Assembly: GCA_963816565.1 (NCBI GenBank)
Contig: CAWFLM010000012.1
Span: forward strand, 1-15,805
DNA from: an uncultured Alphaproteobacteria bacterium
GTDB lineage: Bacteria > Pseudomonadota > Alphaproteobacteria > Rhizobiales > Xanthobacteraceae
Reading direction: 5' to 3'
Length of the DNA: 15,805 nucleotides
Position numbers and translations under genes: made by a program
The notes under the pieces: model-generated
What the model was told of the DNA's origin: nothing
What the model saw: only the letters and a program-made list of their open reading frames with translations
Database searches by the model: none
In this document: positions 1-15,805 of the stretch, piece after piece
Position numbering within the stretch: position 1 is the stretch's first letter
Layout of the letters: the number at the start of each line of letters is the position of its first letter

Positions 1-67
1 TCTTTTTGCGGGACGGCCTTATTTGCTTCGCGACCGTCTTGGCGCCCGCGCTCTTAGTTGCTGCCAT
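1..67 (-). CDS. Start (first about 22 codons) of an unidentified gene running off the window edge. The N-terminus reads MAATKSAGAKTVAKQIRPSRKK.
   Basis: The reverse complement of 1-67 reads ATG GCA GCA ACT AAG .... It is preceded by GGTGGAGATAGAT, a GGAGA-like RBS about 7 nt upstream. It is too short to appear in the ORF track. It does not look like the acidic RpoD N-terminus that often follows dnaG. Confidence 0.2.
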   Translation of the reverse strand, partial: MAATKSAGAKTVAKQIRPSRKK

Positions 68-367
68 ATCTATCTCCACCAAGCCTGTCCGTACCAAGCG
101 GGCTTCGCGCCTTTGCCCCAAACTACGCCCCTACCCTATGGTCATGCGCCACACCGGGTAGACGGGTCCTTCCCTTGTGCCGAAGGCCAACGCACAAAGC
201 CCTCGAGCGGACGGCCAAAAGGGGCAGCGCCGACCGTAGCAGATGCCGCCCGAATCGAGAGGCTTTCAGTCTTCGCGGAACTCCGTTAAGCTCCGACTAA
301 CCCTGTTCGCCGCGCCCCGCGGTCTCCTTATTATTCGGCCACCCTGGCGTCCAGAGCCAGCGCCAAA

Positions 368-2378
368 CTAGAGCGCGCGCGTCGGACGGCCGGATTCGTT
401 GCCGAAACCCTCAATTAATGCCTCGGTACCCTCGAGGGTCGACAGCCGGGACTTCACGTCGCGCAGACGAGAATAATTAGCCTCGCTGTTGTCCTGTCCG
501 AGCGCCAATTCTGCGTCCTTAAGTTCCCTAGTTAGGGAATGCCACTGCCGATGCAAGGCAAGAAGCTGCTTCCAGGTCTGCAAAACATCGCCGGAACCCG
601 CTTCAGGCCTCGCGACCCAGACCGAGGGCGTGGTGATCGACCGCTCAACCCGCGCGAGAAGGTCCGCGAAGCCCCGGCGCGTGAGTTCCACAAGGAGCCT
701 CGCACGTCCTGCTCGCGGGACTGACCCGATTCCGCGTCCGGAGGCCTGTCCCGGCCCTCACCGAAATGATGCGCAAGAACGTCGATCAGCGCGGCTTTGA
801 GCCGGTTCGCATCGCCGTGGCGGAACTCGGTTTCGGCGAGTTCCTCGAGGCGATCGTGCAGCAGCGAAGGATGATTGAGCGCCGCCTGCAGGATCAGCGC
901 CTCCCGCAGCGGAATGGCGGTGCGGTGGCCCCGGTGCAGCGGGCTCGCCGCGAGCTGCGGGCTCGCGGTCACGTATCCGCGGCCATAGGCCATGCGGGGC
1001 GAATAGGTCGGCGTCCCCGCGTTCGGCGATCGCGGTCCTGCGGTCGCCGCGCTCACCGCCGCGTCCGCGATCGTTCCAGCTGCCGCGGCGCGTATTGGCA
1101 CCTCGACCGGCGCAAACAGCGCCCGGAGCCTCGCGGCGAAGTCGGAGCGGTAATAGCGGCGTACGGTTTCGTCGGCGATGGTGTTCGTCACCTCGATCAG
1201 CCGCGCTTCGAGCGCGGCACGCCGCTCGGGGGTTGCGAAGGTGCCGGCTTCTGTCTCGCGCGTCCACAGCACGTCGGCGAGCGGCCGGGCGGCGCCCAGC
1301 ACATCCTCGATTGCCTCGCGTCCGCCGGAACGCACCAGATCGTCGGGATCCTGTCCGTCCGGCAGTGCTGCGAGCTTGAGGCTTTTGCCCGGCTTGATCA
1401 GCGGCAGCGCGACATCCAGCGCGCGATACGCCGCGCGTTTGCCGGCATCGTCGCCGTCGAAGCACAGCATCGGTTCGTCGGCCATCCGCCACATCAGCGC
1501 AAGCTGCTCGGCGGTGAGCGCGGTGCCAAGCGGCGCGACGGTGGCCTCGAAGCCCGCCGTCACCATGGCGATGACGTCGATATAGCCTTCGACCGCGATG
1601 ACGCGCCCGCCTTCATGCGCGGCCTTGCGCGCCGTTGCGATGTTGTAAAGCGTGGCGCCTTTGTGAAAGAGCGGCGTCTCGGGCGAATTCAGATATTTCG
1701 CCGACATTTCCTTGTCGAGCGCGCGGCCGCCGAACGCGATCACCCGTCCGCGCCAGTCGCTGATCGGAAACATCACGCGGTCGCGGAAGCGGTCATACGG
1801 CACCGGGATATCTTCGCCGGCGACCAGCAGCCCCGCCTCGACCATGTCCTCGACCGAAATCTTCGCGGCGCCGAGATGCTCCTTGAGCGCGTATTGCTCG
1901 CCCGACGCATAGCCGAGCCGAAACTGCAACTGCGTCGCCGAGGCGAAATGCCGCGGTCGGCGAGATAGCCGCGGCCGCGCGCGCCGGTGCGCGCCGCGAG
2001 ATTGGCCTCGAAAAATTTTGCCGCCAGATCGACGATGTCGTGCAGCGACTTGCGGCGCTCCTCGTAAGCCTGCGCTTCGCGCGTCATCACCGGCAGGGGC
2101 ACGCCGGCCTGCCCGGCCAGCCGCTCGACCGCCTCGGGGAAGCTCACCCCTTCGGTCGCCATCACAAAATCGAAAATGTTGCCGTTCTTGCCGGAGGAGA
2201 AGTCAAACCACATCGCCTTCTGGTCATTGACGAAGAACGACGGCGTTTTCTCCTTGTTGAAGGGCGACAGCCCTTTCCACTCGCGGCCGGCTTTGCGCAA
2301 TTTGATGCGCTGGCCGACGACTTCCGAAACCGGAAGCCGCGCCCGCAGTTCATCGAGGAATTGCGGAGAAAATCGCAT
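368..2378 (-). CDS. dnaG: DNA primase DnaG. It is split over at least 3 frames here.
   Basis: ORF 1773-2378 (-) carries the N-terminal zinc-binding domain (MRFSPQFLDELRARLPVSEVVG...WFDFSSGKNGNIFDFVMATEGVSF). ORF 532-1929 (-) carries the TOPRIM/catalytic core (VIAVEGYIDVIAMVTAGFEATVAPLGTALT, CFDGDDAGKRAAYRA). ORF 368-691 (-) carries the C-terminal helper region. Frame breaks fall near 1930 and 700. Confidence 0.9.
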
Positions 2379-2492
2379 GGTGATTCGGGGAGCTTATCGC
2401 GGAAGCGGGCCAAATAGGGGGCGGCCGGCCCGTCAGGCCGCCTCCGGGCCGATTGTCCCGGTTATCCACAGGCAAACAAGGTGCGGGCCGGA

Positions 2493-2955
2493 TTACCCGG
2501 CGAGCAGTTCTTCACCATCGCGCTGGCCTTGCCGAAATCCATCTGTCCGGAGAAGCGTTCCTTGAGCGCCGTCATGGTGCGGCCCATGTCCTTGAGCGTG
2601 GCCGCTTCGAGTTCCTTGATCAGCGACGAGATCGCCTCGCCCGCTTCGACGTCGGACAAGCTGCTTCGGCAGGTATCCGGAGATGATCGTCGATCTCCTC
2701 GCGCTCCTGGTCGGCGAGTTCGGCGCGTCCGGCTTTCTCGTAGATTTCGAGCGATTCCTGCCGCTGCTTGATCATCTTGCCCATAACGTCGAGGATTTCG
2801 GCATCGCTGAGCGTGAGCGCGTTCCGCGGCGCTGGTCTCGCGCTTCAATATCTCGGCATTGATCAGGCGCAGCGTCGAAATGCGGCGCTTGTCGCCTGCC
2901 TTCATTGCGGTCTTTGAGGGCGTTGTTGATATCGTCGCGCAACACGGCTATGGCC
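2493..2955 (-). CDS. GatB/YqeY domain-containing protein. It is frameshifted; the true stop appears to be TAA at 2493-2495.
   Basis: ORF 2462-2905 (-) reads MKAGDKRRISTLRLINAEI...GEAISSLIKELEAATLKDMGRTMTALKERFSGQMDFGKASAMVK, the typical YqeY C-terminus. Upstream in another frame it reads ...LRDDINNALKD. A 1-nt deletion near the 3' end turns ...MVKELLAG* into ...MVKNCSPG.... The position upstream of dnaG matches Nitrobacteraceae synteny. Confidence 0.75.
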
Positions 2956-3014
2956 TCATGCAATTCGCAAAATCGCCCGCACGGCGGGCGGCGCGCGCAC
3001 GATGATGTAGGCGC

Positions 3015-4239
3015 TTGCCGATGTTGACACAACCGCAGACCCGGCAGCTCTGGGACGATCCCGCGCCGACGGCGCTGCTCGTGCTGGCCGACGGCACCGT
3101 GCTCGAAGGCTTGGGCTTCGGCGCGACCGGCCATGCCGTCGGCGAAGTCTGCTTCAATACCGCGATGACCGGTTACGAGGAAATCCTCACCGATCCGTCC
3201 TATGCCGGCCAGATCATCACCTTCACCTTTCCGCATATCGGCAATGTCGGCACCAACGAGGAGGACATCGAGACCGTCAACCTCGCGGCGACGCCAGGCG
3301 CGCGCGGCGTCATTCTGCACTCGCCGATCACCGCGCCGTCGAATTATCGCGCCACGCGCCATCTCGATGCCTGGCTCAAGAGCCGCGGCGTCATCGGGCT
3401 TTCGCGGCATCGACACCCGCGCGCTCACCGCGCTTCATCCGCAAGAACGGCATGCCGAACGCGGTGATCGTCCACGAGCCGTCCGGCCGCTTCGATCTCG
3501 ATGAGCTCAAGCGCGAAGCGAGGCAATGGCCGGGACTGGTCGGCATGGACCTCGTGCCGATGGTGACTTCCGGCCAGCGCTTCACCTGGCAGGAGACGCC
3601 GTGGGTCTGGGGCGAAGGCTACGGCGAAATGCGCGACGCCGGAATTTCACGTCGTCGCCATCGATTACGGCATCAAGCGCAACATTCTGCGCCAGCTCGC
3701 CGGCAGTCGTTGCAGGGTGACGGTGGTGCCGGCGCAGACGTCGGCCGCCGACATTCTGGCGCTCAAGCCGGACGGCATTTTTCTCTCCAACGGCCCCGGC
3801 GATCCGGCCGCGACCGGCGAATATGCCGTGCCGGTGATCCGCACCCTGATCGAGCAAAAGCCGGTGTTCGGCATCTGCCTCGGCCACCAGATGCTGGGCC
3901 TCGCGCTCGGCGGCCAAGACCATGAAGATGCATCAGGGCCATCACGGCGCGAACCATCCGGTGAAGGATCTCGCGACCGGCAAGGTCGAGATCACCTCGA
4001 TGAATCACGGCTTCGCGGTCGACCGCGCCAGCCTGCCGCCGAACGTCGTGGAAACCCACGTCTCGCTGTTCGACGGCTCCAATTGCGGGCTCGCGCTCAA
4101 GGACCGGCCGGTATTCTCGGTTCAGTACCATCCCGAGGCGTCGCCCGGCCCGCGCGACAGCCACGGGCTGTTCAAGCGGTTTGTCGACCTGATGCGGGAG
4201 TTCAAACGGAGCTTGAGCGCGGGCAAAATCCGGGCCTGA
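3015..4239 (+). CDS. carA: Carbamoyl-phosphate synthase small (glutamine amidotransferase) subunit CarA. It needs about 3 frame shifts.
   Basis: ORF 3015-3467 reads [40 protein letters not shown]...[33 protein letters not shown], the CPSase small-chain N-domain. The pieces at 3452-3925 and 3717-4529 carry the GATase domain ([43 protein letters not shown]). ORF 3922-4239 reads [14 protein letters not shown]...MNHGFAV...[26 protein letters not shown]. Confidence 0.92.
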
Positions 4240-4304
4240 GGTCAGACAATTTCAACCCCATATCGGCTAAAATGACCGAGCCGCCTCGGCGAGACGAACA
4301 TACC

Positions 4305-4816
4305 ATGCCGACCCCCAGCCCGCGTTCCGTGCCGATCACCCATAAATTCGCCGACGACGGAACGATCCCGAACAATCCGGTGCTGCCGTTGGTGATGTAC
4401 CGCGGCGGGCATCGATCTCGCCGGCTCGCCCGACCCGGAGGAGATCGATCGAGAAGACCTTCGCCGCGAACGGCTGGGGCGGGATGTGGCGCAACGGCGT
4501 TTATCCTTACGTCCACTATCATTCGATGATTCACGAGGCGATGGGCGATCGCGCGCGGTCGCGCCAGGGTCCGCTTCGGCGGCGACAAGGGCGGGAGATC
4601 GATATCGCGCCCGGCGATGTCGTCGTGCTGCCGGCCGGCACCGGCCACCAGGGCCTGAGCCAAACGCCGGACCTTGTCGTGATCGGCAGCCTATCCGCCG
4701 AGTCGGCAAATACAATCTCTGCCGCGGCAGCAAGGCGGAACACGCAGGCGCTCGACTCGATTCCCGCGTGCCGCTGCCGCAGACCGATCCGGTGTTCGGC
4801 GCCGAAGGCCCGCTGA
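4305..4816 (+). CDS. Small cupin-domain protein, frameshifted.
   Basis: It reads [35 protein letters not shown]. After a shift it continues ...[24 protein letters not shown]...[33 protein letters not shown]. The G-x5-HxH-like motif and PAGxxH motif are typical of cupins. The 3' end is uncertain. Confidence 0.55.
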
Positions 4817-4823
4817 TCGCACT

Positions 4824-5529
4824 GTGGCGGGCATGATCACCGACTGGCTGGCGTTCTGGGACGGTCCGCATTTCATTTACGTCAGCGCGCGCCACAAGGA
4901 TGTCCACTATCGCCTGATCGCGAAAGAGATCGCGGCGCTGGTCCCCGGCCCCGACGCACGCGTGCTCGATTACGGCTCGGGCGAGGCGCTGCACGCCGAC
5001 CTCGTCGCTGACGCCGCCGGCGAACTCTTGCTGTGCGAAGCGGCCGCCAGCGTGCGCGCGGGCCTCGAAAAGCGTTTTGCCGGACAACCCGAAAATCCGC
5101 GTCGATCGCGCCGCACGAAATCGCGCGGCTGCCCGAGCACTCGCTCGACCTGATCGTCATGCACTCGGTCGCTGCAGTATGTGACGCCGGCCGGCGCCGG
5201 CGTGCTGTTCGCGCTGTTTCACCGCATTTTGAAATCCGACGGCCTGCTCGTGGTGAGCGACGTCATCCAGCCGCAGACCGCTGCCGCGACCGATGCGTTT
5301 CGCTGCTGCGGTTCGGCATGGCCAACAGATTTTTCTTTGCCGCGCTGTGGGGCCTCGCGCGCACGCTGTTGTCGGATTACTGGCGGCTGCGCTCGCAACT
5401 CGGGCTGACGCGCTATGCCCAGGCGCCATGATCGAGAAACTCAGCGCCGCCGGCTTCACCGCGGAACGCGCGCCGGCCAATATCGGGCACAATCAGGAAC
5501 GCCGGACCTACTACGCGCGTCCGCGCTAG
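4824..5529 (+). CDS. Class I SAM-dependent methyltransferase, frameshifted.
   Basis: It reads MAGMITDWLAFWDGPHFIYVSARHKDVHYRLIAKEIAALVPGPDARVLDYGSGEALHADLV, which is motif I VLDYGSGEA. It continues in other frames with ...LDLIVMHSVAQYVTPAGAGVLFALFHRILKSDGLLVVSDVIQP...MIEKLSAAGFTAERAPANIGHNQERRTYYARPR*. Confidence 0.65.
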
Positions 5530-5535
5530 ACCCGT

Positions 5536-6776
5536 TCAGGCGACCGCTGCGAGCGCGCGCATGCGCGCCTGATCCACCAAGGCTCCGTTGCTTGATGACA
5601 TGCGCCGGCGGTTCGTGAAAGCGCAGCGCCTCGATGACGTCGGGTTGGTTCAGCACGACAAGGTCGGCCACCGCTCCCTCGGTCAACCGGAAGCCCGGAA
5701 GGTTGATGGCGGTGGCCGCGTCGACCGTGATCATGTCGTAGAGCTTTTCGACATCCTGCCGCGTCATCATCCATAACAGGTGCGAGGCGAGGAACGCGAC
5801 TTCCAGCATGTTGTTGCGGCCGAACGCGTAGTAGGCGTCGGAAATATCGTCCTGGCCGAGGCAGACGACGACGCCCTCGGCCAGCAATTCCTTGACGCGC
5901 GCGTGCAACGGACCGGTGTGCGGATCGGTCACGACAGCGATCCGCGCCGCACGCAAAAGCCGCGCGAGCCGCTGCACATAGGGCATCGGATAAAGGCTCA
6001 TCGCCCGGCAATGGTGCGCGAGCGCGCGGCCGTGCCAGCCGCGCTCGATGGTCTCGACCGCCATCATTTCCAGCGTGCGCAAACCGGGATCGCCGGCATC
6101 GTCAAGAAGCATGGAAACGTCCTTGTCGAATTTTTGCGCAAGATCGAAACAGGCTTTCACGTGCTTCGCGGCATCGGCCGTCGGTAAACTCGATCCACGG
6201 AATGCCGCCGACCACATCGGCGCCGAGCGCCATCGCCTCGCTGCATCAGTTCGAGCGCGCCCGGCTCGCGGACGATGCCGTCCTGGGCGAAGGCGACGAT
6301 TTGCAGATCGACAATGCCGCGGAATTCGTCGCGAACGCGAATGAGCGCCTTCACGCCTTCAAGACGCGCCTTGCCGTCAACGTCGGCAAAAGCACGAATG
6401 TGCAAGTTGCCGTGAAGCGCCGCCAGCGCCACGGCGCGGCGCGCATTTTCGACGATCCAGGATTTCCGCGTATTTTTCTTTGATCTTGCTGGCGAGTTCG
6501 ATGCCGGCCATCGCTTTGCCCATCGCCTCGCCCTGATAGGACTTGAGCGCTTCCTCCTCCATCATCGGCAAGCGTCCACACCTTGCACAGATGCAGGTGC
6601 GGATTGACGAAGGATTCGGTCACCAGATTGCCGCCGGCGTCGATCTCCGTCGTTCCGCGGCGATCGAGATTTTCACCGATAGCAACGATGCGGCCGTTCT
6701 TGATGCCGATCTCGGCAAGCCGATCGCGGCCGCGGAGCCGGGCACGGCGGATGGCGATGTCGAACGGCTGATCCAT
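5536..6776 (-). CDS. Amidohydrolase-superfamily protein, cytosine-deaminase/AtzC-like. It is split over 3 ORFs.
   Basis: The N-terminal ORF 6351-6776 (-) reads MDQPFDIAIRRARL...GGNLVTESFVNPHLHLCKVWTL, an HxH metal-binding motif. The middle ORF is 6157-6432 (-). The C-terminal ORF 5456-6217 (-) reads ...IAVVTDPHTGPLHARVKELLAEGVVVCLGQDDISDAYYAFGRNNMLEVAFLASHL.... A likely true C-terminus ...VIKQ-GALVDQARMRALAAVA* in the alternate frame ends near 5536. Confidence 0.8.
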
Positions 6777-7042
6777 TGCTCGATTTTAGTTCAAGGCGCT
6801 GCGAAAGCTTCTTGCTGCTAAAAGCCGACATATACCCCGGTCGTGGTGTATTTCCACCAAAGCGAAACTCTATTCTCGATCTCTTAGTTGCTCCGACCGC
6901 ACTATTTCCCCTGAGACAGGGAGCTTGCATGGTATTGCGCATTCTCACGGTCTGTCGCATCGTGATTTTAAGGATTTAGCGACCAGCTTTCCGCGTGCTC
7001 GGCGGCGATTCAACGATGGGTCCGATCAATTGACCGTATCCG

Positions 7043-8106
7043 ATGCAAAAAATGGGCTGCCCCCGTCCCACAAGCGGTGGTTCAACCCCTGACCCGCGCC
7101 GCGATCTTTCTGATCGTGACCATAAATCCTGGCGTCGAAAATCGTGCGGCCGTCCGGTCATTCTGCGGAGACCTGCCGGCGCTCCTTCGCGCCGTGGGTT
7201 TCCGCGACATCGAAGGCGAGCTTGTCCTGCGTCCTCGGATTTGGATCGGATGCGTGGGACAGGCTTTTCGGCACGCCGCGGCCGGCCGAGCTGCATCCGT
7301 TCCGCGAAATCAAGGCCGGTCCCCGCCATGCCGTCGCCACGCCCGGCGACATGCTGTTTCACATCCGCGCCAAGCGCATGGATCTCTGCTTCGAGCTGGC
7401 CACCCAGATCATGGCGCGGCTCAAAGATGCGGTTTCGCCCGTCGACGAGGTACACGGCTTTAGATATTTCGATGACCGTGATCTGGTCGGATTTGTCGAC
7501 GGAACGGAAAATCCGACGGATCAAGCGGCACTCGACGCCGCACTCGTCGAGCCTGGAGGACGCCGCGTTTGCCGGCGGCAGCTACGTGATCGTGCAAAAA
7601 TACTTGCATGATCTGGCCGGCTGGAACGCGCTATCCACCGAAGCTCAGGAACGCATCATCGGCCGCACCAAGCTTTCAGACATCGAGCTTGATGACGCTG
7701 TCAAACCAACATGCGCTCACAATGCGCTCACCACGATCGTGGAGGACGGCAAGGAAGTAAAGATCGTTCGCGACAACATGCCGTTCGGCTCGGTGGCGAA
7801 GGCGGAGTTCGGGACCTATTTCATCGGTTACGCTCGTTCGCCCCGAACGATCGAGCAAATGCTGGTGAATATGTTCGTCGGCCGGCCTCCTGGCAATTAT
7901 GACCGGTTGCTGGATTTCAGCCGCGCTGTAAGCGGCAGTCTTGTTCTTCGCGCCGTCGGCGACGTTCCTGGAGAATGTCGCGGACGACGAGCCCGTGGCG
8001 CCTTTGCCGCCGCGCTGCGGTTGCGGCGCCGGCGCAACCGGCGGCATCTGCGCGCGATGGATCGCTCGGTATTGGTTCCCTCAAAGGAGATCCTCCTCAT
8101 GAATAA
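7043..8106 (+). CDS. Dyp-type peroxidase, encapsulin cargo, with a C-terminal targeting peptide. It needs about 4 frame shifts and the 5' start is uncertain (7043-7077).
   Basis: Frame 0 reads ...AVVQPLTRAAIFLIVTINPG...LRAVGFRDIEGELV. Frame 1 (ORF 7144-7611) reads ...LHPFREIKAGPRHAVATPGDMLFHIRAKRMDLCFELATQIMARL...VDEVHGFRYFDDRDLVGFVDGTENPTD, the DyP GXXDG motif. Frame 2 reads ...GGSYVIVQKYLHDLAGWNALSTEAQERIIGRTK...GTYFIGYARSPRTIEQMLVNMFVGRPPGNYDRLLDFSRAVSGSL. Frame 0 then reads SLFFAPSATFLENVADDEPVAP. Frame 1 ends ...PAQPAASARDGSLGIGSLKGDPPHE* with TAA at 8104-8106. SLGIGSLKG is the canonical encapsulin cargo-loading peptide. Confidence 0.88.
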
Positions 8107-8938
8107 TCTTTACCGCGAGCTTGCTCCGATCTCAGACGCGGCGTGGTCTCAGATCGAGGAGGAGACCTCCCGCACGTTCAAGCGCTACCTCGCCGGACGG
8201 CGCGTCGTTGACATGCAGGGTCCGGGCGGTGTCGCGCTTCCGGCCATCGGCACCGGCCATTTGCGCGATATTAAAGCGTCCGGCGACGGCATCATCTCGC
8301 GCCAGCGCGAGGTGAAAGCGCTGGTCGAACTGCGCGTACCCTTCGAGCTTAGTCGCCAGCAGATCGACGATGTCGAGCGCGGCGCTAACGACTCAGACTG
8401 GCAGCCCGCGAAGGACGCCGCGCAGAGGATAGCCTTTGCGGAAGATCGCGCCATATTCGAAGGCTATGTCGCCGGCGGAATCGGCGGCATCCGGGAAGGG
8501 ACCAGCAATCCAGTGACGGCGCTTCCAGCCGACGTGCGCGCCTACCCGGACGCCATCGCCAAAGCGGTAAGCCAGTTGCGTCTGGTCGGCGTCAACGGTC
8601 CATATTCCGTGCTGCTCAGCGCCGATGCCTACACCAGCCTCAGCGAGACCAGCGATCACGGTTATCCGGTACTTGACCACGTCAAACGTCTGGTGGATGG
8701 CGAAATTATATGGGCGCCGGCAATCGCGGGCGCATTCGTGCTGACAACCCGCGGCGGCGATTTCGGCCTGTACATCGGCCAGGACGTATCGATCGGCTAT
8801 CTGAGCCACACCGAAGCAGTCGTCCGCCTTTACCTACAGGAGACATTCACTTTTCTCTTGCTCACGACGGAAGCTGCTGTCGCGTTAGCTCCCCCTGCGG
8901 ACGCGCGGTCGAATCCCGCTCAGCGAAAGCAGCGCTGA
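8099..8938 (+). CDS. Family 1 encapsulin nanocompartment shell protein (HK97 fold). It is the only long gene here that reads through without frame breaks.
   Basis: It reads MNNLYRELAPISDAAWSQIEEETSRTFKRYLAGRRVVDMQGP...DDVERGANDSDWQPAKDAAQRIAFAEDRAIFEGY...VGVNGPYSVLLSADAYTSLSETSDHGYPVLDHVKRL...EIIWAPAIAGAFVLTTRGGDFGLYIGQDVSIGYLSHTEAVVRLYLQETFTF. This matches characterised DyP-associated encapsulins end to end. Its ATG at 8099 overlaps the DyP stop (cATGAATAA). The last about 14 aa (PADARSNPAQRKQR) may be a read-through of a frame error. Confidence 0.92.
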   Translation: MNNLYRELAPISDAAWSQIEEETSRTFKRYLAGRRVVDMQGPGGVALPAIGTGHLRDIKASGDGIISRQREVKALVELRVPFELSRQQIDDVERGANDSDWQPAKDAAQRIAFAEDRAIFEGYVAGGIGGIREGTSNPVTALPADVRAYPDAIAKAVSQLRLVGVNGPYSVLLSADAYTSLSETSDHGYPVLDHVKRLVDGEIIWAPAIAGAFVLTTRGGDFGLYIGQDVSIGYLSHTEAVVRLYLQETFTFLLLTTEAAVALAPPADARSNPAQRKQR

Positions 8939-9061
8939 TCCATCGAGATCAGCGCATTCGCTTCCGAACGAAAGCTGCAGTCGTCGTGATGGAGAAGAGC
9001 CAACAAAGAGTAACTTGTCGACAAAAGATTTATAAGCTCCGCCCCAAAAAGACGTCCAAAA

Positions 9062-9112
9062 AGACTTGCCCAAAAAGAAGAGGTCGCCTGCGATATTTTT
9101 CGCAAGCGACCT
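9062..9112 (-). terminator. Rho-independent terminator for paralog A on the minus strand.
   Basis: Plus-strand AGGTCGCCTGCG (9081-9092), loop ATATTTTT, then CGCAAGCGACCT (9101-9112). This is a 12-bp stem with 1 mismatch. On the minus strand it is followed by CTTCTTTTTGGGCAAGTCTTTTTGGACGTCTTTTTGGGG, which gives three T5 runs. It lies 37 nt after the gene A stop. Confidence 0.6.
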
Positions 9113-9148
9113 TCATTGTCATCCGACGCAGGCGACATGTCGGCGTCT

Positions 9149-9941
9149 TTAGTTCTTCGCCTGCCCGTTGGCCTTCAGAAAGTCCTGATAGGTGAGGCCC
9201 GCGTAGTTCGGCGTGGTCGGCGCTTGCGTTGCGTCGGCAGCCGGCGCCACAGGCGCTGCGTCGATGGATTTGCTGCCGGCCGGCGACACCGGGGTCGTGT
9301 CGGACAGGCCCCACCGACCGGCGCGCTGGCCGCTTCTTTGGTGAAGACTCGGCAAACACCACTAGGCCATCCTGCGTGTAAGCCTTGGTCAGGCAGGTGC
9401 ACGGACCGGGCGAAGCCACAGACACCGGGGCCGCATCCGCGAGTTCACCAGCAACCGTATCGATAGATACAGCGACCATCACGGAGAATCCAGTGCCCGT
9501 GACCATTGAATGCCCAGCCGGGTTGACCCGGGAAACCTGGACGGCCGGGATAGCCTGGACGGCCCGGATTGAGGATCGGAAGGCCAACCGTGCGACCGCC
9601 GCCACCGTTGTAGCCGCCTGTGCCAGTGCCGACGCGGCCACCGTTACCGGTACCAGTACCGACCTGGCCACCATTGTTGCCGGCGGTGCCGAGACCGCTG
9701 CCGGCGCGCTGCTGTTGCCGAAGTTGTTAGCGGAAACGGTGCTGTACTGTACCGGAAACTGAGCTGGCGCCGAAGGCGCGTACCGCTGGCGGTCTTGTCC
9801 GCGAGACACTGTGGTTGACGCCGCTGCCGCGACTGGCATTACCGCCGCCGCTGGAACCACGGGCATAAGATTCGCTAGATGAAACGAGGCAACGGTGATC
9901 GTGGCCGCGGCTGCAAGGCTGAGGATGAGGGTGCGTGACAT
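9149..9941 (-). CDS. Paralog A of a secreted Gly/His-rich, Cys-containing protein of unknown function. It carries a signal peptide and several 1-nt indels.
   Basis: The ATG at 9939-9941 sits behind GGAGAAC-N6. The N-terminus MSRTLILSLAAAATITVASF is a Sec signal peptide. Alternate frames give a Gly-rich region (GSGLGTAGNNGGQVGTGTGNGGRVGTGTGGYNGGGG), a collagen-like PGRPGYPGRPGFPGQPG stretch, then GWAFNGHGHWILRDGR, then ...ELADAAPVSVASPGPCTCLTKAYTQDGLVVFAES-TKEAASAPVGGA..., and the C-terminus ...DAAPVAPAADATQAPTTPNYAGLTYQDFLKANGQAKN* (ORF 9149-9355). The 303-aa ORF 9030-9941 is an artefactual read-through. Confidence 0.6.
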
Positions 9942-9974
9942 CGTTGTTCTCCAGGGTCCGAGTAAGGGAAAGGG

Positions 9975-10014
9975 TTGCGATACCCGTTAGTCGGAGTTGT
10001 CGGAGAAAGGTTCA
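9975..10014 (-). promoter_or_regulatory. Putative ECF-sigma-dependent promoter of paralog A.
   Basis: On the minus strand it reads TGAACC (plus 10009-10014), then TTTCTCCGACAACTC (15 nt), then CGACTAA (plus 9987-9993), then the conserved AACGGGTATCGCAA. The -10 element ends 45 nt before the ATG. The same architecture is found upstream of paralog B and of the ECF sigma gene. Confidence 0.4.
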
Positions 10015-10134
10015 GGGCCGGTGAAGATCGCGATCGGCCTCGAGCGCGCCGCCGCAAGCGGGCCGGCAGGCGCCCTTAACTGGCGGGCCCTCATCAATGC
10101 CGGATAGGATCGATTGGCGGATTGCAATGAAAGT

Positions 10135-11013
10135 CTATTGGACCAGTTCGAGCACAAAATCCATCGGCTCGGCAATCGAATAACCCGAGTTAAGAAGCAT
10201 CGTAAAATCCGCCGCTTTTTCGGTCAGTGGAATAAACTCAGTCATGATGCCGACAAGATGAAAGTATATTTCAGAACCCTCCGGATCGATTTCAAATACC
10301 GGCCCTCCGCTGTTTCCCCTGTACACCGGGCCATCAATAATCAAAGAACGTCTTTGCGGATCTTTTCCGGCGATAAAAGCCTTTCGCAGCAGCGGCCGCA
10401 GCGGATCGAATTGTTGGTGTCAGGAAGACCCAGCGACGCCGGGTAGCCATACAAAATAGCATCGTTTCCGACCAGAACTTGATCGAACTTTCGGACCGCA
10501 ATCATTCCCGCACTAACCAGGCCGCTGTCCGCAAATTCGACTTTTGCGACCCCCGGCGAAAAGAATGTCATCAGCGAGTGATCCTGGGCTTCCTTCAGAA
10601 TCCCGAGCTTGATGGCTGCAACATCTCTCGTTTTGTGCGGCTTCACATCGCCCCGATCCAGCAGCATTTTGAAATCGACCCTCAGCAAAATCCGCTGCGG
10701 CGTCGGCTGATCCATCGAGTATGACACCAGTTCAAGAACCAGATCCGGCACTTCGGCTTTGTGGGTTTTTTCGTTGGGCAGGCCTGACGCTATGACGTGT
10801 TTTGCGGTCACCAAATATTCTGCATTGGCGGTACCAAAATAAAAACCCGAGCCAAAGCCCAACGTCGTTCCACTACTGTTTTTCATGATAACCAAGACGG
10901 GATAGGCCAAATTGTCGTCGGGAATCATCCGCCTCGCCTGCGCCAAATTGATCGACACGAACGGCCAAAGCGACGACCAGGAACAAGCGGCTGATTTGGA
11001 GCAGGTGATTCAT
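10135..11013 (-). CDS. Secreted trypsin-like (S1 / chymotrypsin-fold) serine peptidase. It sits in a low-GC island and has 2 frame shifts.
   Basis: A signal peptide MNHLLQISRLFLVVALAVRVD starts at the ATG at 11011-11013. ORF 10341-10958 (-) carries the His motif LVTAKHVIASG and the Asp motif TRDVAAIKLGIL. ORF 10135-10344 (-) carries the Ser motif YRGNSGGPVF (GDSGGP-like) and ends ...SIAEPMDFVLELVQ*. GC is about 47-50% over 10.1-11.1 kb, against about 65% in the flanks. Confidence 0.75.
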
Positions 11014-11154
11014 CGCAACAGCCTTTCAAGATCGGACCTCGCTTTTGGCAGACGCGCCTTTAGCCGCCTCAACTGTAGAACAGCGCGCCCATTTCGTCGC
11101 CCGTCGTTCCGAGCTGGAATGCCGTCGCCAAAAAACTATTTAAGACACTCGCAC

Positions 11155-11201
11155 TAACAAAAAAGAGACAGGTCGCCTGCGATACGTTTCGCAGGCGACC
11201 T
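11155..11201 (-). terminator. Rho-independent terminator for paralog B on the minus strand.
   Basis: Plus-strand AGGTCGCCTGCG (11170-11181), loop ATACGTTT, then CGCAGGCGACCT (11190-11201). This is a perfect 12-bp stem. On the minus strand it is followed by GTCTCTTTTTTGTT. It lies 39 nt after the gene B stop. Its stem sequence is nearly identical to the terminator at 9081-9112. Confidence 0.65.
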
Positions 11202-11239
11202 TCATTCTCATTTCCGGCGTGGGCGTTTTGCCGGCGTCT

Positions 11240-11886
11240 TCAGTTCTTTTCCGCTGCCTGCGCTGCCGCCTGGCCGTTGGCCTTCAGGAAGTCCTGATAG
11301 GTGAGGCCCGCGTAGTTCGGCGTGGTCGGCGCTTGCGTTGCGTCGGCAGCCGGCGCCACGGGCGCTGTGTCGTTGGACTTGCTGTTGGCCGGCGGTACCG
11401 GGGTAGCGTCGGAAGAGGCGCCGCCGATCGCCGCGCTGGCTGCTTCTTTGGTGCACATATCGGCGAACACCACCAGACCGGCCTGCGTGTAAGTCTTGGT
11501 CAGGCAGGTGCACGGACCGGGAGCAGCCGCAGATACGGGCGCCGCATCCGCGAGGTCACCATCCACCGGGTCGATGACGATCCAGCGGCCACCACGGAAA
11601 ATCCAGTGTCCGTGACCATGGCCGGCCCAACGGCCGGGAGCCGGAGCCGATCCGGGTGACCGGGACGGTCGCCATTGCGGGCTACACGTCCGCCACCATC
11701 GCGGCCGCCGCGGCCGGCGCCGGTACGTCCGCCGACATTGACGTGACCGCCGACGCTGGCATGACCGCCGAAACTGGCATGACCGCCGCCGCCGCCGAAA
11801 CCGTGGGCGTAAGAAGCGCTGGAAGCAAGCGAGGCGACGGTGATCGTGGCCGCGGCTGCGAGGGTGAGGATCAGGGTGCGTGACAT
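11240..11886 (-). CDS. Paralog B of the secreted Gly/His-rich, Cys-containing protein, about 215 aa. It has a signal peptide and at least 1 frame shift.
   Basis: The ATG at 11884-11886 sits behind GGAGAAC. It reads MSRTLILTLAAAATITVASLASSASYA, a signal peptide with an AxA cleavage site. This is followed by HGFGGGGGHASFGGHASVGGHVNVGGRTGAGRGGRDGGGRVA, which contains GGHxx[FV] hexapeptide repeats. After a frame shift it reads ...APGRWAGHGHGHWIFRGGRWIVIDPVDGDLADAAPVSAAAPGPCTCLTKTYTQAGLVVFADMCTKEAASAAIGGASSDATPVPPANSKSNDTAPVAPAADATQAPTTPNYAGLTYQDFLKANGQAAAQAAEKN* (ORF 11240-11566). The 263-aa ORF 11500-12291 is an artefact that runs past the true start. Confidence 0.65.
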
Positions 11887-11918
11887 GGTCGTTCTCCAGG
11901 GGTTGCGAGGGTTGGGCG

Positions 11919-11959
11919 TTTCGATACCCGTTGGTCGGTGGCTCCCGGAGAAAGGTTCA
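11919..11959 (-). promoter_or_regulatory. Putative ECF-sigma-dependent promoter of paralog B.
   Basis: On the minus strand it reads TGAACC (plus 11954-11959), then TTTCTCCGGGAGCCAC (16 nt), then CGACCAA (plus 11931-11937), then AACGGGTATCGAAA. The -10 element ends 44 nt before the ATG. The 5'-UTR ...CCCTGGAGAAC(A/G)AC(G/C)ATG is conserved with paralog A. Confidence 0.4.
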
Positions 11960-12177
11960 AAGGGGACAGTGAAATTCTCGATAGGCGCGGGGCGGGACCG
12001 GCCGGGGTCGAGCGGCGAGCCGCCTACTATTAAGTTTGCTTGAGTCGGCGTTGGCGGAGCTGACGCTGAAAGCCCATAAAACAAGGCTTTTGGCCTTCGG
12101 CTTGCCCTACCGCACATGAATAAGGAAACTGCCGGTACTCGAGTAGCCGAACCGCGCAAATTTTCTTCGATTTCAAT

Positions 12178-12206
12178 TGAACCTGGGCGCCGCTCCCAAC
12201 GACCAA
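12178..12206 (+). promoter_or_regulatory. Putative autoregulatory ECF-type promoter of the sigma factor gene.
   Basis: TGAACC (12178-12183), then TGGGCGCCGCTCCCAA (16 nt), then CGACCAA (12200-12206). It lies 23 nt upstream of the ATG at 12230. It has the same -35/-10 sequences and spacing as the promoters of paralogs A and B. Confidence 0.35.
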
Positions 12207-12229
12207 TTTTACGAGCCGATAGCCTGCCG

Positions 12230-12790
12230 ATGCAGACGACTTCGGACGAGGTTCTGATCGGAAGGATCGCCAATGGCGACCGGCTCGCCATGCAGGTGCT
12301 GTTCGCGCGTCACCATGTCCGGGTTTACCGATTCGTGCTGCGGCTGGTGCGCAACGAGGCAACGGCGGAGGATTTGATCAGTGAGGTGTTCCTCGACGTC
12401 TGGCGGCAGGCCGGCAGGTTCGAGGGACGGTCAGCGGTGTCGACCTGGATGTTGAGCATCGCCCGCTTCAAGGCGCTGTCGGCGCTGCGCAAGCGTACCG
12501 AGGAGGAGCTGGATGACGAGACGGCCAGCGCGATCGAGGATCATGCCGACGATCCGGAGGTCTCGCTGGCGAAGAAGGATAAAGCCGCCGTGTTGCGGCA
12601 ATGCCTGGGCAAGCTCTCGGCCGAGCACCGGGAGGTCGTCGACCTCGTATACTACCATGAGAAATCGGTGGAGGAGGTCGCGGGCATTGTCGGCATTCCG
12701 GAGGCGACCGTGAAGACGCGCATGTTCTATGCGCGGAGGAAACTGTCGGAGCTCCTCAAGGAGCAAGGAATGGATCGAGGTTGGCCATGA
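12230..12790 (+). CDS. ECF-family RNA polymerase sigma-70 factor.
   Basis: It reads MQTTSDEVLIGRIANGDRLAMQVLFARHHVRVYRFVLRLVRNEATAEDLISEVFLDVWRQAGRFEGRSAVSTWMLSIARFKALSALRKR, which is region 2. It continues ...LSAEHREVVDLVYYHEKSVEEVAGIVGIPEATVKTRMFYARRKLSELL, which is region 4. The six-frame ORF starts at 12116, but the N-terminal alignment and the promoter favour 12230. Its TGA overlaps the anti-sigma ATG (CCATGACC). Confidence 0.9.
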   Translation: MQTTSDEVLIGRIANGDRLAMQVLFARHHVRVYRFVLRLVRNEATAEDLISEVFLDVWRQAGRFEGRSAVSTWMLSIARFKALSALRKRTEEELDDETASAIEDHADDPEVSLAKKDKAAVLRQCLGKLSAEHREVVDLVYYHEKSVEEVAGIVGIPEATVKTRMFYARRKLSELLKEQGMDRGWP

Positions 12791-13467
12791 CCGCGGCGCA
12801 AGGAAAGCGAGCCGAACGAAATCGAACTCCTGCTGCCTTGGCACGCGGCGGGAACGCTCAGCCAACGCGACAAGCAGCGCGTGGAAGCCGCGCTCGCCAA
12901 CGACCCGGAGCTTGCGCGCCGCTACCAGCTGGTGCGCGAGGAGCTTGGCGAGACCATCCACCTCAACGAGACGCTGGGGGCGCCATCGGCGCGCGCCATG
13001 GAAGCGCTATTCGCCAAGATCGACGCCGAGCCGGCGCGAGCCCCGGCGGTGTCGATCAATGTCGGCGTGCGCATTCGCGAATTTTTGCCGGCCTTTCGCC
13101 GCGCACGCTTGCCTGGTCGGCAAGCGCGGCGATGCTGGCCATTCTGCTGCAGGCCGGATTGATTGCCGGCATTCTGTTCAAAGAACAAGGCGCCCAGACT
13201 GCGGCCAACTACCAAACGGCCTCGCTGTCGCGCCCGGCCAGCGGCGAAGGTTCCTATGCGCTGATCCGTTTCCAGCCGCAGGCCAATGCCGCCGAAATCA
13301 GCAAATTCCTGGAAACCAACAAACTCACTATCGCCGACGGCCCGTCGCCGGGCGGGCTATATCGGGTGCGCGTCGCGCCGAGCAAGGTTTCCGGTACGGA
13401 CCTCACCGGCATCGTGAAGAAGCTGCAGGACAATAGCGTTGTGGGCTTTATCGCCCCCACGGAGTGA
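12787..13467 (+). CDS. Cognate anti-sigma factor, a single-pass membrane protein. It needs 2 frame shifts.
   Basis: Stitched over 3 frames it reads MTAAQGKRAEPNEIELLLPWHAAGTLSQRDKQRVEAALANDPELARRYQLVREELGETIHLNETLGAPSARAMEALFAKIDAEP.... It then reads ...LSPRTLAWSASAAMLAILLQAGLIAGILF, which is a transmembrane helix. It continues ...YALIRFQPQANAAEISKFLETNKLTIADGPSPGGLYRVRVAPS...VGFIAPTE*. The N-terminal ELLLPW..G.LS motif is typical of ECF anti-sigma factors. It is translationally coupled to the sigma gene. Confidence 0.75.
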   Translation: MTAAQGKRAERNRTPAALARGGNAQPTRQAARGSRARQRPGACAPLPAGARGAWRDHPPQRDAGGAIGARHGSAIRQDRRRAGASPGGVDQCRRAHSRIFAGLSPRTLAWSASAAMLAILLQAGLIAGILFKEQGAQTAANYQTASLSRPASGEGSYALIRFQPQANAAEISKFLETNKLTIADGPSPGGLYRVRVAPSKVSGTDLTGIVKKLQDNSVVGFIAPTE

Positions 13468-13556
13468 TCGTCCTGCCACAGTTTGGCTTGAGAGTTCTGC
13501 CATTGAAGGCGTTGCCGACACTAGCGCGGTGCGCACCGCCGTATCGGGAGGTTGCC

Positions 13557-15705
13557 ATGCGAAGCAAGCGATGACGTCCCGATCGATCCTGGGGGTTATG
13601 CTCTTCGGTTTGTTTTGGCGGTAGCTGCATTGACAAATCTGGCCCCGCCGCAGCGCGCGGCTTCGGCGGCGGCGTTTTGGCGGGGGGGCGCGCGGATGTT
13701 CGCGGCATGCGCGGCGGCGGATCGCACCACGAATGACGCGGAGTAGCGGCAGGACAAGTGGCGGTACATCCACCAAACGCGACGTCGGCAATTCGAGCGG
13801 ACCAGGACAACAAACACGTCGGGGACGGCCAGCCATCACGCGAACGTCGGCCGCCAATTCCGGAACAAAAACGACAAATACTGAACCAACTACAATTCTA
13901 GCTTGAGTTCATCCGGCAAGCACCGTCAAAAACGACGCATCAGGGGAACGGCAACATTTCGACCTCGAAAACATTGACGAATCAACACCGGTTCGAAAAC
14001 AACCAACATCAGGGGAGCAGCAACACTTCCACTGCGAACACGTCGACGACTGCCGGCTCGAGAACAACGACACGCAAGGAAGCGGCAACAATTCCACCGT
14101 GAACAGGTCGGCGAGCAATACCGGCTCAAGAACCACGACCACGACCGGCAACACGTCGACATCGAACACGTCGAACGCCAATGCCGGCTCGACGACAACA
14201 AACACACAGGGGCCGGCCAACACCCACCGGAAACACTCAGCCGCCAACAACGGCTCGAGGACGGGAAGCACGCCGGGGACCGGCGGCAATTCCACATCGA
14301 ATACGCCGGGCGCCACTACCGGTTCGGACACTGGTCGGGCCGGGGACGGTCGCTAATGCCGGCTCGAATACATCTGACACGCCGCGCGGTGGCGGCCGCG
14401 TTCCCGGCTGCAGTGCCGAACATTCCGCCGGGGCCTGTTGGTCTTGGCGGTGGCGGTGGCGGCGCAGGGGGTGGCGGCGGAGGTGCCGGTGGCGGCGGCG
14501 GAGGTGGCGCGGGTGGCGGAGCCAATGTGGCCAGCAGCGGCGTCCCACCGCGAAACGAGCGGCGCTACGTACCTGACGAAGTCATCGCTGAGTTTTCGTC
14601 GACCGCGACGCCGCAATCGATCGATCAGCTCGCACGCCGGTACAATTTGACCCGGCTTGAATCGCAAAGCTTCCCATTGATCGGCACCATCATTTACCGC
14701 TGGCACATCAACGGCCGCCGCTCAGTCCGGATACAATCGGTGCGATCGAAGACCAGCGCGTCGTCGCCAGAGCACAGCCCAATTACCTTTTCACGCTGCA
14801 AGCAGACGCCACAACCCCGGCGACAAAAACCCGCGGCGACGATTCGGCCCAATACGCCCTCGGCAAGCTGCACATCGAACGCGCGCATCAAGTCGCGACC
14901 GGGAAAAACATTCCGATTGCCTTGATCGACTCCGAGATCGACGTGAAACATCCGGACCTGAATGGAGCAATCACAAAAAGCTTCGATCCGCTCGGTGGAG
15001 ATGCCAAGCCGCACCCGCACGGCACTGCCATGGCAGGCGCCATCGCCGCGCACGGGAAACTTTCCGGCATCGCTTTAGGCCCGCATCTGTTGGCGGCGCG
15101 CGCCTTCGACAACACCGCGGGCGAGACCAAGGGTACCTCTCTTGCGATCTACAAAAGCCTGCAGTGGGCCGCGGACAATGGCGCTCGCGTCATCAACATG
15201 AGCTTCGCCGGCCCCGCCGACCCCGACATGCACCGGATGCTGGCGGCCGCATACGAGAAAGGCATCGTGCTGGTAGCGGCAGCCGGAAACGCCGGACCCA
15301 ACTCCGCACCGCTTTATCCGGCGGCCGATCCCGACGTCATCGCGGTGACTGCCACCGACAGCAATGACGGTCTGTTCAAGATGGCCAACCGCGGCTCATA
15401 CATTGCCGTTGCTGCTCCGGGCGTGGAGATTCTGGCACTGGCGCCCGGTAAACCGTATCAGATCACCACGGGCACCTCGGTCGCCGCGGCGCATGTCAGC
15501 GGGATCGCGGCAATGCTGCTCAAAGAAAAACCTTCGCTCACGCCCAACAAGTCCGCTCGATCATCATGTCTACTGCCAAGCCGCTCGGATCGGCCGGCCA
15601 GCGATCGGACTTTGGCGCCGGACTGGTCGATGCCTACCAGGCGGTGACGGCGATAGGAACGGCAAGCCGGCGGTTAAACAGGACGCCGAACAGGCAAAGG
15701 AATAA
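13557..15705 (+). CDS. Secreted subtilisin-like (S8) serine peptidase. It has a long N-terminal low-complexity Ser/Thr/Asn/Gly repeat region, a poly-Gly tract and an I9-like propeptide. The N-terminal part has many frame shifts and the 5' extent is uncertain.
   Basis: The catalytic domain (ORF 14922-15647 plus neighbouring frames) reads IALIDSEIDVKHPDL (Asp), HPHGTAMAGAIAAHG (His), AAAGNAGPNS (Asn) and TTGTSVAAAHVSGIAAMLL (Ser). The propeptide reads NERRYVPDEVIAEFSSTATPQSIDQLARRYNL.... Upstream are GLGGGGGGAGGGGGGAGGGGGGGAGGG and NTGSRTTTTTGNTSTSNTSNANAGSTTTNTQGP... repeats. A candidate signal peptide MRSKR-MTSRSILGVMLFGLF-LAVAALTNLAPPQRAASA sits at 13557, 6 nt after GGGAGG. Every frame has stops between 13746 and 14100, so the link between the signal peptide and the protease rests on assuming indels. 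The gene ends ...AYQAVTAIGNGKPAVKQDAEQAKE* at 15705. Confidence 0.8.
13920..14400 (+). repeat. About 7 degenerate tandem copies of a unit of about 60-68 nt that encodes an STNG-rich peptide repeat.
   Basis: The anchor [AT][AG]CCGG[CT]TC[GA]A recurs at about 13988, 14051, 14119, 14181, 14249, 14317 and 14356. Spacings are 63, 68, 62, 68, 68 and 39 nt. Translated units look like NTGSRTTTTTGNTSTSNTSNA, NAGSTTTNTQGPANT... and NNGSRTGSTPGTGGNSTSNTPGA. Confidence 0.6.
14443..14525 (+). repeat. GGN codon tract encoding poly-Gly (G6-7 A)x4.
   Basis: The DNA reads ggcggtggcggtggcggcgcagggggtggcggcggaggtgccggtggcggcggcggaggtggcgcgggtggcgga. The antisense poly-Pro ORF 14316-14525 and the WRWRW/AVAVAA ORFs in other frames are artefacts of this tract. 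Confidence 0.7.
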
Positions 15706-15805
15706 TCGCAAAGCCGATCGGCGTGCTAGCCTTGCCGTGACACCGACGGTATCGGCCATGACCGCGCCGTGTGCGCCGAGCGGTTTTTCGTCGCCAATTG
15801 TTGAA

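Follow-up and report, generated by a model that had tools for sequence, protein, structure and literature searches.

Genes split by single-base indels are a familiar product of long-read assembly. In the Microflora Danica (MFD) project, which relied on Nanopore-only Flye assemblies with one round of Medaka and no short-read polishing, microdiversity was named as a limit on the recovery of metagenome-assembled genomes (MAGs; PMC12313526), and the same group has reported that Nanopore bins under about 40-fold coverage still require short-read polishing (PMC9262707). Flye is also reported to merge strains of 97.6-98.7% identity into a single consensus (PMC8302730). Here we analyse contig CAWFLM010000012.1 of GenBank assembly GCA_963816565.1, assigned to an uncultured alphaproteobacterium of the Xanthobacteraceae, over a stretch of 15,805 nucleotides (nt; hereafter the window) in which nearly every gene is interrupted by frame breaks. 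We conclude, with a probability of roughly 0.93, that these breaks are an artefact, errors of the deposited consensus and not mutations of the organism. The genes beneath them are intact and under normal purifying selection, and the window is a piece of conserved chromosome from a Xanthobacteraceae-like alphaproteobacterium of soil. Given an artefact, the collapse of co-occurring strains has slightly better than even chances of being a major source of the errors.

An earlier note on this DNA had claimed that frame breaks run throughout it, essential genes included, at a rate of one per 250-400 base pairs (bp), and both points held. Frameshift-aware alignment with intact orthologues from at least seven related contigs located about 52 single-base indels in the 15,805 nt (32 insertions, 19 deletions, and one net -1 event), or one per about 300 bp overall. 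All of them are specific to the window in comparison with two to six relatives and all measure 1 nt, two with possible 2-nt alternatives; beyond these events, the nucleotide alignments with relatives show only a handful of in-frame differences of length, in variable linkers. In six-frame reading, DnaG is spread over three frames and the DyP-type peroxidase over five segments. Breaks were found in all 12 genes that the note had listed and, in addition, in the first 22 codons of rpoD and at two conserved non-coding sites (about 82/83 and about 7000), only the encapsulin and extracytoplasmic function (ECF) sigma factor genes being free of indels. The estimate of 1-4 shifts per gene was too low, since the range is 1-8 and several genes reach 5-8, and the advice to treat coding sequence coordinates as approximate was sound. 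The breaks sit in the deposited public sequence itself: the public gene call P0001 (465 amino acids, aa), located on an NCBI and ENA contig of exactly 15,805 nt, matches the broken fragment at 532..1929 on the minus strand with 100% identity, and the window is therefore an entire deposited contig.

The breaks were located with a purpose-written aligner that matches protein to DNA locally and tolerates +1 and -1 shifts, with intact orthologues as queries, and the sites were then confirmed by nucleotide alignment with the 2-6 relatives; the two Gly-rich paralogs of the window were additionally aligned with each other. Plain tblastn was not used for the counts, as it returned long low-identity alignments that pass through the frameshifts and mask them. 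Because the relatives are just 80-94% identical, the position of some indels is certain only to ±3 nt, and four calls, all in low-complexity or variable sequence, are of low confidence (4743 and 4766 in the cupin-like gene, 9706 and 9750 in paralog 1). The tabulation of indels against related sequence that the earlier note had suggested was made against relatives at this distance, and the roughly 52 events are unevenly spread along the window. Between positions 2500 and 8100 there are 5.9 events per kb (33 in all, of which 27 are insertions and 6 deletions), and in the remainder 1.9 per kb (19 in all, 5 insertions and 13 deletions); the insertion/deletion balance differs between the two (Fisher P=2e-4, an optimistic value because the region boundaries were picked after the data had been seen). 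Such region-dependent density and sign fit a consensus made from differing read sets along the contig.

The note had read the breaks as indel sequencing error rather than pseudogenisation, and the selection evidence supports it. After correction of the breaks, 4192 codons could be aligned to the relatives, with 88.5% identity and no in-frame stop. In 1988 gap-free codons of six genes, the ratio of nonsynonymous to synonymous substitution rates (dN/dS) is 0.113-0.130 when the window is compared with four relatives, and 0.093-0.113 among the relatives themselves. Once codons close to gaps are masked, substitutions private to the window fall on codon positions 1, 2, and 3 in the proportions 41/27/132, so that 66% are at the third position; under neutral decay, about one third of the changes are expected at each. 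These codon-position counts leave room for at most about 44 hidden neutral-like substitutions in about 5 kb, while the genes concerned carry 31 indels. Long-read error typically has an indel-to-substitution ratio near 1, which is far above that of real bacterial pseudogenes. Essential genes are struck repeatedly, dnaG and carA with four breaks each and rpoD with one in its first 22 codons; the earlier argument that decay is implausible in dnaG and carA stands.

Together, the absence of stops, the normal dN/dS, the third-position bias, the breaks in essential genes and also in conserved non-coding DNA, the excess of insertions, and the intactness of all but one of the orthologues in relatives make real pseudogenisation very unlikely. 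In that explanation, the lineage would be undergoing massive recent gene decay, being newly host-restricted or otherwise degenerating, and the presence of the breaks in the public record, the damage to nearly every gene, and the 59 private amino-acid changes of the window (11-34 in relatives) might all be cited in its favour. Decay would nevertheless have had to leave no nonsense codon in 4192 beside some 50 frameshifts, a dN/dS of 0.11-0.13 like that of functional relatives, and two thirds of the private changes at third positions, while inflicting 3-8 independent breaks per gene, with dnaG, carA, and rpoD among the genes hit. Moreover, the gene order is that of the relatives, without large deletions or gene loss, and the G+C content (63%) and gene spacing are normal. 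Insertions predominate, contrary to the deletion bias that Mira, Ochman, and Moran are said to have described in 2001 for bacterial decay. Still less credible is a variant in which the indels are real in a free-living-type soil alphaproteobacterium that carries 1-8 true frameshifts in almost every gene while its coding sequence remains constrained; it would need either indel mutation to have surged extremely recently or some means of expressing frame-broken genes. Programmed recoding, by which ribosomal frameshifting or transcriptional slippage would restore the frame, has a practically negligible probability. The one point in its favour, and not a specific one, is that full-length proteins can be recovered by shifting frame, and it is excluded because none of the shift sites occurs in any relative and no common slippery motif or homopolymer lies at the sites, whereas programmed systems have a shift site and slippery motif conserved among orthologues. 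Up to 8 breaks per gene and the indels in conserved non-coding DNA also speak against it.

As to the type of error, homopolymers offer no explanation, the check for clustering there that the earlier note had proposed being negative: the longest run within 2 nt averages 2.10 at the indels and 2.19 at random sites, and only one of the 52 indels lies near a run of four or more (it adjoins a T5 run), compared with 7% of random sites. Likewise, the inserted base copies a neighbour in 8 of 27 clean insertions, where 52% would be expected. A different pattern emerged when the inserted bases were compared with the relatives. At 7943 the relatives read TCT-T-TTC or TCT-G-TTC and the window TCT-TG-TTC; at 2689 they read GA-C-ATC or GA-G-ATC and the window GA-CG-ATC; at 8014 they have CT or GC and the window GCT. 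In all, 11 of the 27 clean insertions of one base (2689, 2817, 3638, 4447, 5172, 6240, 6572, 7217, 7548, 7943, and 8014) set next to each other the two alternative bases that relatives, taken as a proxy for the true haplotypes, show in one alignment column, for 3.1 expected (P~1e-4) when bases of the observed composition are placed at random in those alignments. Simulated random insertions into the corrected window followed by MAFFT re-alignment gave the same null of 3.1, and with the DyP region excluded the pattern persists in 7 of 23 insertions (P=0.004). This is what a consensus of collapsed strains would contain, the inserted base and its neighbour being two alleles of one variable site. 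Methylation motifs (GANTC/GATC) near the indels were also considered and rejected, no consistent motif being apparent in contexts checked by eye only, and scans of the window for Rfam families, tRNAs, and tandem repeats gave nothing relevant.

In the most likely scenario, a consensus built from long reads without accurate-read polishing had single bases wrongly added (32) or dropped (19), and a considerable part of the insertions probably goes back to reads of two slightly different co-occurring strains having been merged into one contig. At a variable site both alleles would then be kept next to each other (T/G becoming TG, CT/GC becoming GCT), and the extra base would throw the gene out of frame. 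The relatives nearest to the window lie on Microflora Danica contigs whose names are of the Flye type, a provenance that is only suggestive for our contig. The main competitor belongs to the same class of artefact, namely pure random read errors at very low depth, from one or a few raw reads and with no strain mixture, which we regard as possible but rather doubtful. The indel rate (0.2-0.6%) is near that of modern raw long reads, the indels lie outside homopolymers in random-looking base contexts, the contig is only 15.8 kb long whereas the intact relatives are on contigs of 40-540 kb, and the two-allele pattern is missing in 16 of the 27 insertions. Random errors should not, however, match two-base polymorphic sites of the relatives 11 times for 3.1 expected, nor reverse their insertion/deletion ratio between regions, and the settings used in the relatives' project drop very low-coverage contigs, an objection that applies if, as we infer, the contig belongs to that project.

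Several observations weigh against consensus error with strain collapse as its major source. The classic long-read signature of homopolymer errors is absent; the 16 insertions lacking the two-allele pattern are a majority, in a test that covered insertions only; and the boundaries of the regions compared for heterogeneity were set post hoc. An indel rate of 0.3-0.6%, near raw-read level, is more than Medaka polishing should leave behind under the depth cut-offs of the relatives' project. Compared with the related contig L081, the window shows an excess of about 20 private changes at first and second codon positions, the third-position counts being similar (132 versus 141), and these extra changes could be substitution errors or real change. 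No same-species reference was found among the sequences searched, the best amino-acid identities being 82% for DnaG, 95% for the S8 peptidase, and 98% for encapsulin, and since the best relatives have 80-94% DNA identity, substitution errors are not directly countable. Finally, the sequencing platform, the pipeline, the coverage, and the strain-collapse step are deduced from the sequence and its relatives.

The features of the window, with the breaks located in each, are as follows.

1..67, minus strand: 5' end of rpoD, with the start codon at 67..65 and one net -1 break at about 20/21
82..83, non-coding: conserved rpoD leader, with a 1-nt deletion (GGC-TTGG in the window, (G/A)GCGTTGG in relatives, the G being present in 5 of 5)
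371..2378, minus strand: dnaG (DNA primase), 4 breaks (-1 at about 755; +1 between about 988 and about 1045; -1 at about 1100; -1, or +2, at about 1945)
2493..2945, minus strand: yqeY (GatB/YqeY family), 5 breaks (-1 at 2508; +1 at 2661, 2689, 2817, and 2910)
3021..4215, plus strand: carA (carbamoyl-phosphate synthase small subunit), 4 insertions (3400, 3433, 3638, 3912)
4305..4843, plus strand: cupin-like gene, 6-8 breaks (+1 at 4407, 4447, 4543, 4687, and 4703; -1 at 4591; an uncertain pair at about 4743/4766)
4833..5529, plus strand: S-adenosylmethionine-dependent methyltransferase, 5 breaks (+1 at 5082, 5105, and 5172; -1 at 5300 and 5423)
5536..6776, minus strand: amidohydrolase, 5 insertions (5590, 6179, 6240, 6465, 6572)
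7000, non-coding: upstream of the DyP gene, a 1-nt insertion (GCTCGG in the window, GCT-GG in L006 and L001)
7044..8103, plus strand: DyP-type peroxidase, 4 insertions (about 7217, 7548, 7943, 8014)
8099..8938, plus strand: encapsulin shell protein (Linocin_M18), no indel; single frame, 262 of 276 residues identical to L006
9140..9941, minus strand: paralog 1, Gly-rich secreted protein, 3-6 breaks (-1 at 9305 and 9347; +1 at 9465; -1 at about 9880; weak calls at 9706 and 9750 in low-complexity sequence)
10135..11013, minus strand: trypsin-like S1 peptidase (Trypsin_2), 2 breaks (-1 at about 10418; +1 at 10962); Pfam Trypsin_2 match on the L083 orthologue
11250..11886, minus strand: paralog 2, Gly-rich secreted protein, 1 break (-1 at about 11648, against three relatives)
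12230..12790, plus strand: ECF sigma factor, no indel; single frame, 162 of 186 residues identical
12787..13467, plus strand: anti-sigma factor, 2 breaks (+1 at about 12799; -1 at 13086)
14490..15705, plus strand: S8 subtilisin-like peptidase, 3 deletions (14725, 15548, 15656)

The corrected proteins closely resemble their intact counterparts. DnaG has 561 of 656 residues identical to the intact 675-aa protein of L083, without stops; YqeY has 138 of 148 and the methyltransferase 209 of 229 residues identical; CarA has 363 of 395 and the amidohydrolase 393 of 410 to those of L082; DyP 333 of 351 to the intact L006 protein, which matches Pfam Dyp_perox_N/C; and the S8 peptidase 367 of 390 to the intact P0121 of L085. 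The five yqeY sites come out alike in protein alignments against 3 relatives, and four of them appear in the nucleotide alignment. At the rpoD break, alignment with 5 relatives sets GCAAAT-AAGG in the window against GCAAAATCAAGG, and the reading MAATKSAGAKTVA... shifts frame into ...KAVPQK. Besides its five insertions, the amidohydrolase gene has one in-frame 3-nt deletion at about 6728, which is probably real. At about 7046/7057, within the first codons of the DyP gene or immediately ahead of them, the window has an extra A in an A-run and lacks a T 10 nt further on; this compensated pair changes NEL into KWA, altering three residues and keeping the net frame, and could represent two more errors or true variation in a variable N-terminus.

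The two Gly-rich paralogs had drawn the attention of the earlier note, which took their differences to be 1-nt deletions. Both examples that it quoted are real (GAG-TCTTCACC versus GATATGTGCACC at 9348, and GCCTGT-CCGAC versus GCCTCTTCCGAC at 9304): each marks a 1-nt deletion on the side of paralog 1, and both sites also stand out in the alignment to relatives. As a description of the window the claim fails, insertions (32) exceeding deletions (19) overall. The paralogs are diverged from each other, flank the S1 peptidase gene, and have a common C-terminal part (PGPCTCLTKTYTQ.GLVVFA..CTKEAAS ... APTTPNYAGLTYQDFL); relatives have a single copy of this secreted protein (177-309 aa), and it has no Pfam match. 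A 303-aa open reading frame (ORF) starting with ATG at 9030..9941 was rejected as spurious: it follows the true frame of paralog 1 in some parts and leaves it in others, and it stays open only because off-frame stop codons are rare at this G+C content. Upstream of the S8 gene, positions 13500-14520 form a strongly A-rich (plus strand) repetitive stretch with an AT skew of up to 0.28, which terminates in a tandem repeat of GGTGGCGGCGGAGGTGCCGGG (3.4 copies, 14449-14519) that would encode a poly-Gly/Ala run; at the corresponding place in relatives, gene callers put short minus-strand ORFs (VFDVEVLPVV...) that are seemingly spurious.

The syntenic contigs used for comparison, L081-L086, were reached via homologues of DnaG and of the S8 peptidase. 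They have the core order rpoD-dnaG-yqeY-carA-cupin-like-methyltransferase-(amidohydrolase)-...-ECF sigma-anti-sigma-S8-carB. Gene identities were confirmed by precomputed Pfam matches on the relatives, together with Linocin_M18, Dyp_perox_N/C, Trypsin_2, and a weak cupin match (on the L083 cupin-like orthologue the Cupin_2 score is under the cut-off). Intact lengths in relatives are 662-675 aa for DnaG, 149 for YqeY, 395-396 for CarA, 176-178 for the cupin-like protein, 231 for the methyltransferase, 412-413 for the amidohydrolase, 292 for the Trypsin_2 peptidase, 186-188 for the ECF sigma factor, 223-233 for the anti-sigma factor, and 393-405 for the S8 peptidase. The orthologues are intact on seven related contigs with the sole exception of the amidohydrolase of L085 (ERZ25039587 contig_50651, 540 kb), which at 2172-3410 is broken by one 1-nt insertion at about 2511, gene calling having given pieces of 90 and 149 aa. 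Errors of this type, or real frameshifts, thus crop up sporadically in a related assembly as well. The cupin-like gene of L085 is called at 209 aa. L086, a forest-soil contig with a scaffold-style name, probably comes from another kind of assembly than the Flye-named contigs, to judge from its record name.

The DyP-encapsulin pair (6931-8940) is absent from all of the syntenic relatives L081-L086. A scan of the genome collection with the encapsulin protein retrieved mainly MFD long-read MAGs, which have just this pair (6931-8929) in common with the window, at 94% DNA identity or less; the nearest copies (L006, 94%) lie in other genomic surroundings and other MAGs. The DyP protein carries a C-terminal encapsulin-targeting tail (DGSLGIGSLKG). 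The pair looks like an inserted or exchanged module of cargo and shell.

Once corrected, the map of the window is that of an ordinary intact core region into which a DyP-encapsulin pair has been inserted. By contrast, the public gene calls on this contig are fragments, as illustrated by a DnaG call of 465 aa where relatives have 662-675 aa, and pseudogene counts, completeness estimates, or protein families derived from the contig would be wrong. If strain alleles are truly written side by side, it may be that sequence alone could flag collapsed microdiversity without recourse to the reads.

With decaying genomes, such as those of recently host-restricted symbionts and pathogens, the window has in common its many frameshifted genes, but their pseudogenes are under relaxed selection, with changes spread evenly over codon positions, and accumulate mixed lesions (nonsense mutations, larger deletions, and a deletion bias). 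The window shows neither nonsense mutations nor relaxed selection, deletion bias, or gene loss, and individual essential genes are broken several times. The strain-oblivious consensus described for Strainberry (PMC8302730) and the microdiversity discussed in the MFD project (PMC12313526) have a parallel in the 11 of 27 insertions at sites variable among relatives where both bases are present; among the papers searched, we found none in which both alleles of a single-nucleotide polymorphism are written in as an extra base, a step that is suggested here by sequence comparison. The closest likeness is with the gene-fragmenting indels of long-read assemblies addressed by IDEEL-type tests (PMC9262707; PMC12007338, Kastor), in which conserved genes are split by single-base indels unseen in relatives and gene calls are truncated. 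Textbook indels of this kind cluster in homopolymers, whereas those of the window do not, and its insertions exceed its deletions at a high and region-dependent rate. In other respects expected of a long-read consensus artefact, the window shows small private indels missing from all relatives, intact purifying selection, and no other inactivating changes, and the contig belongs to this known class of gene-fragmenting assembly errors rather than displaying a biological feature.

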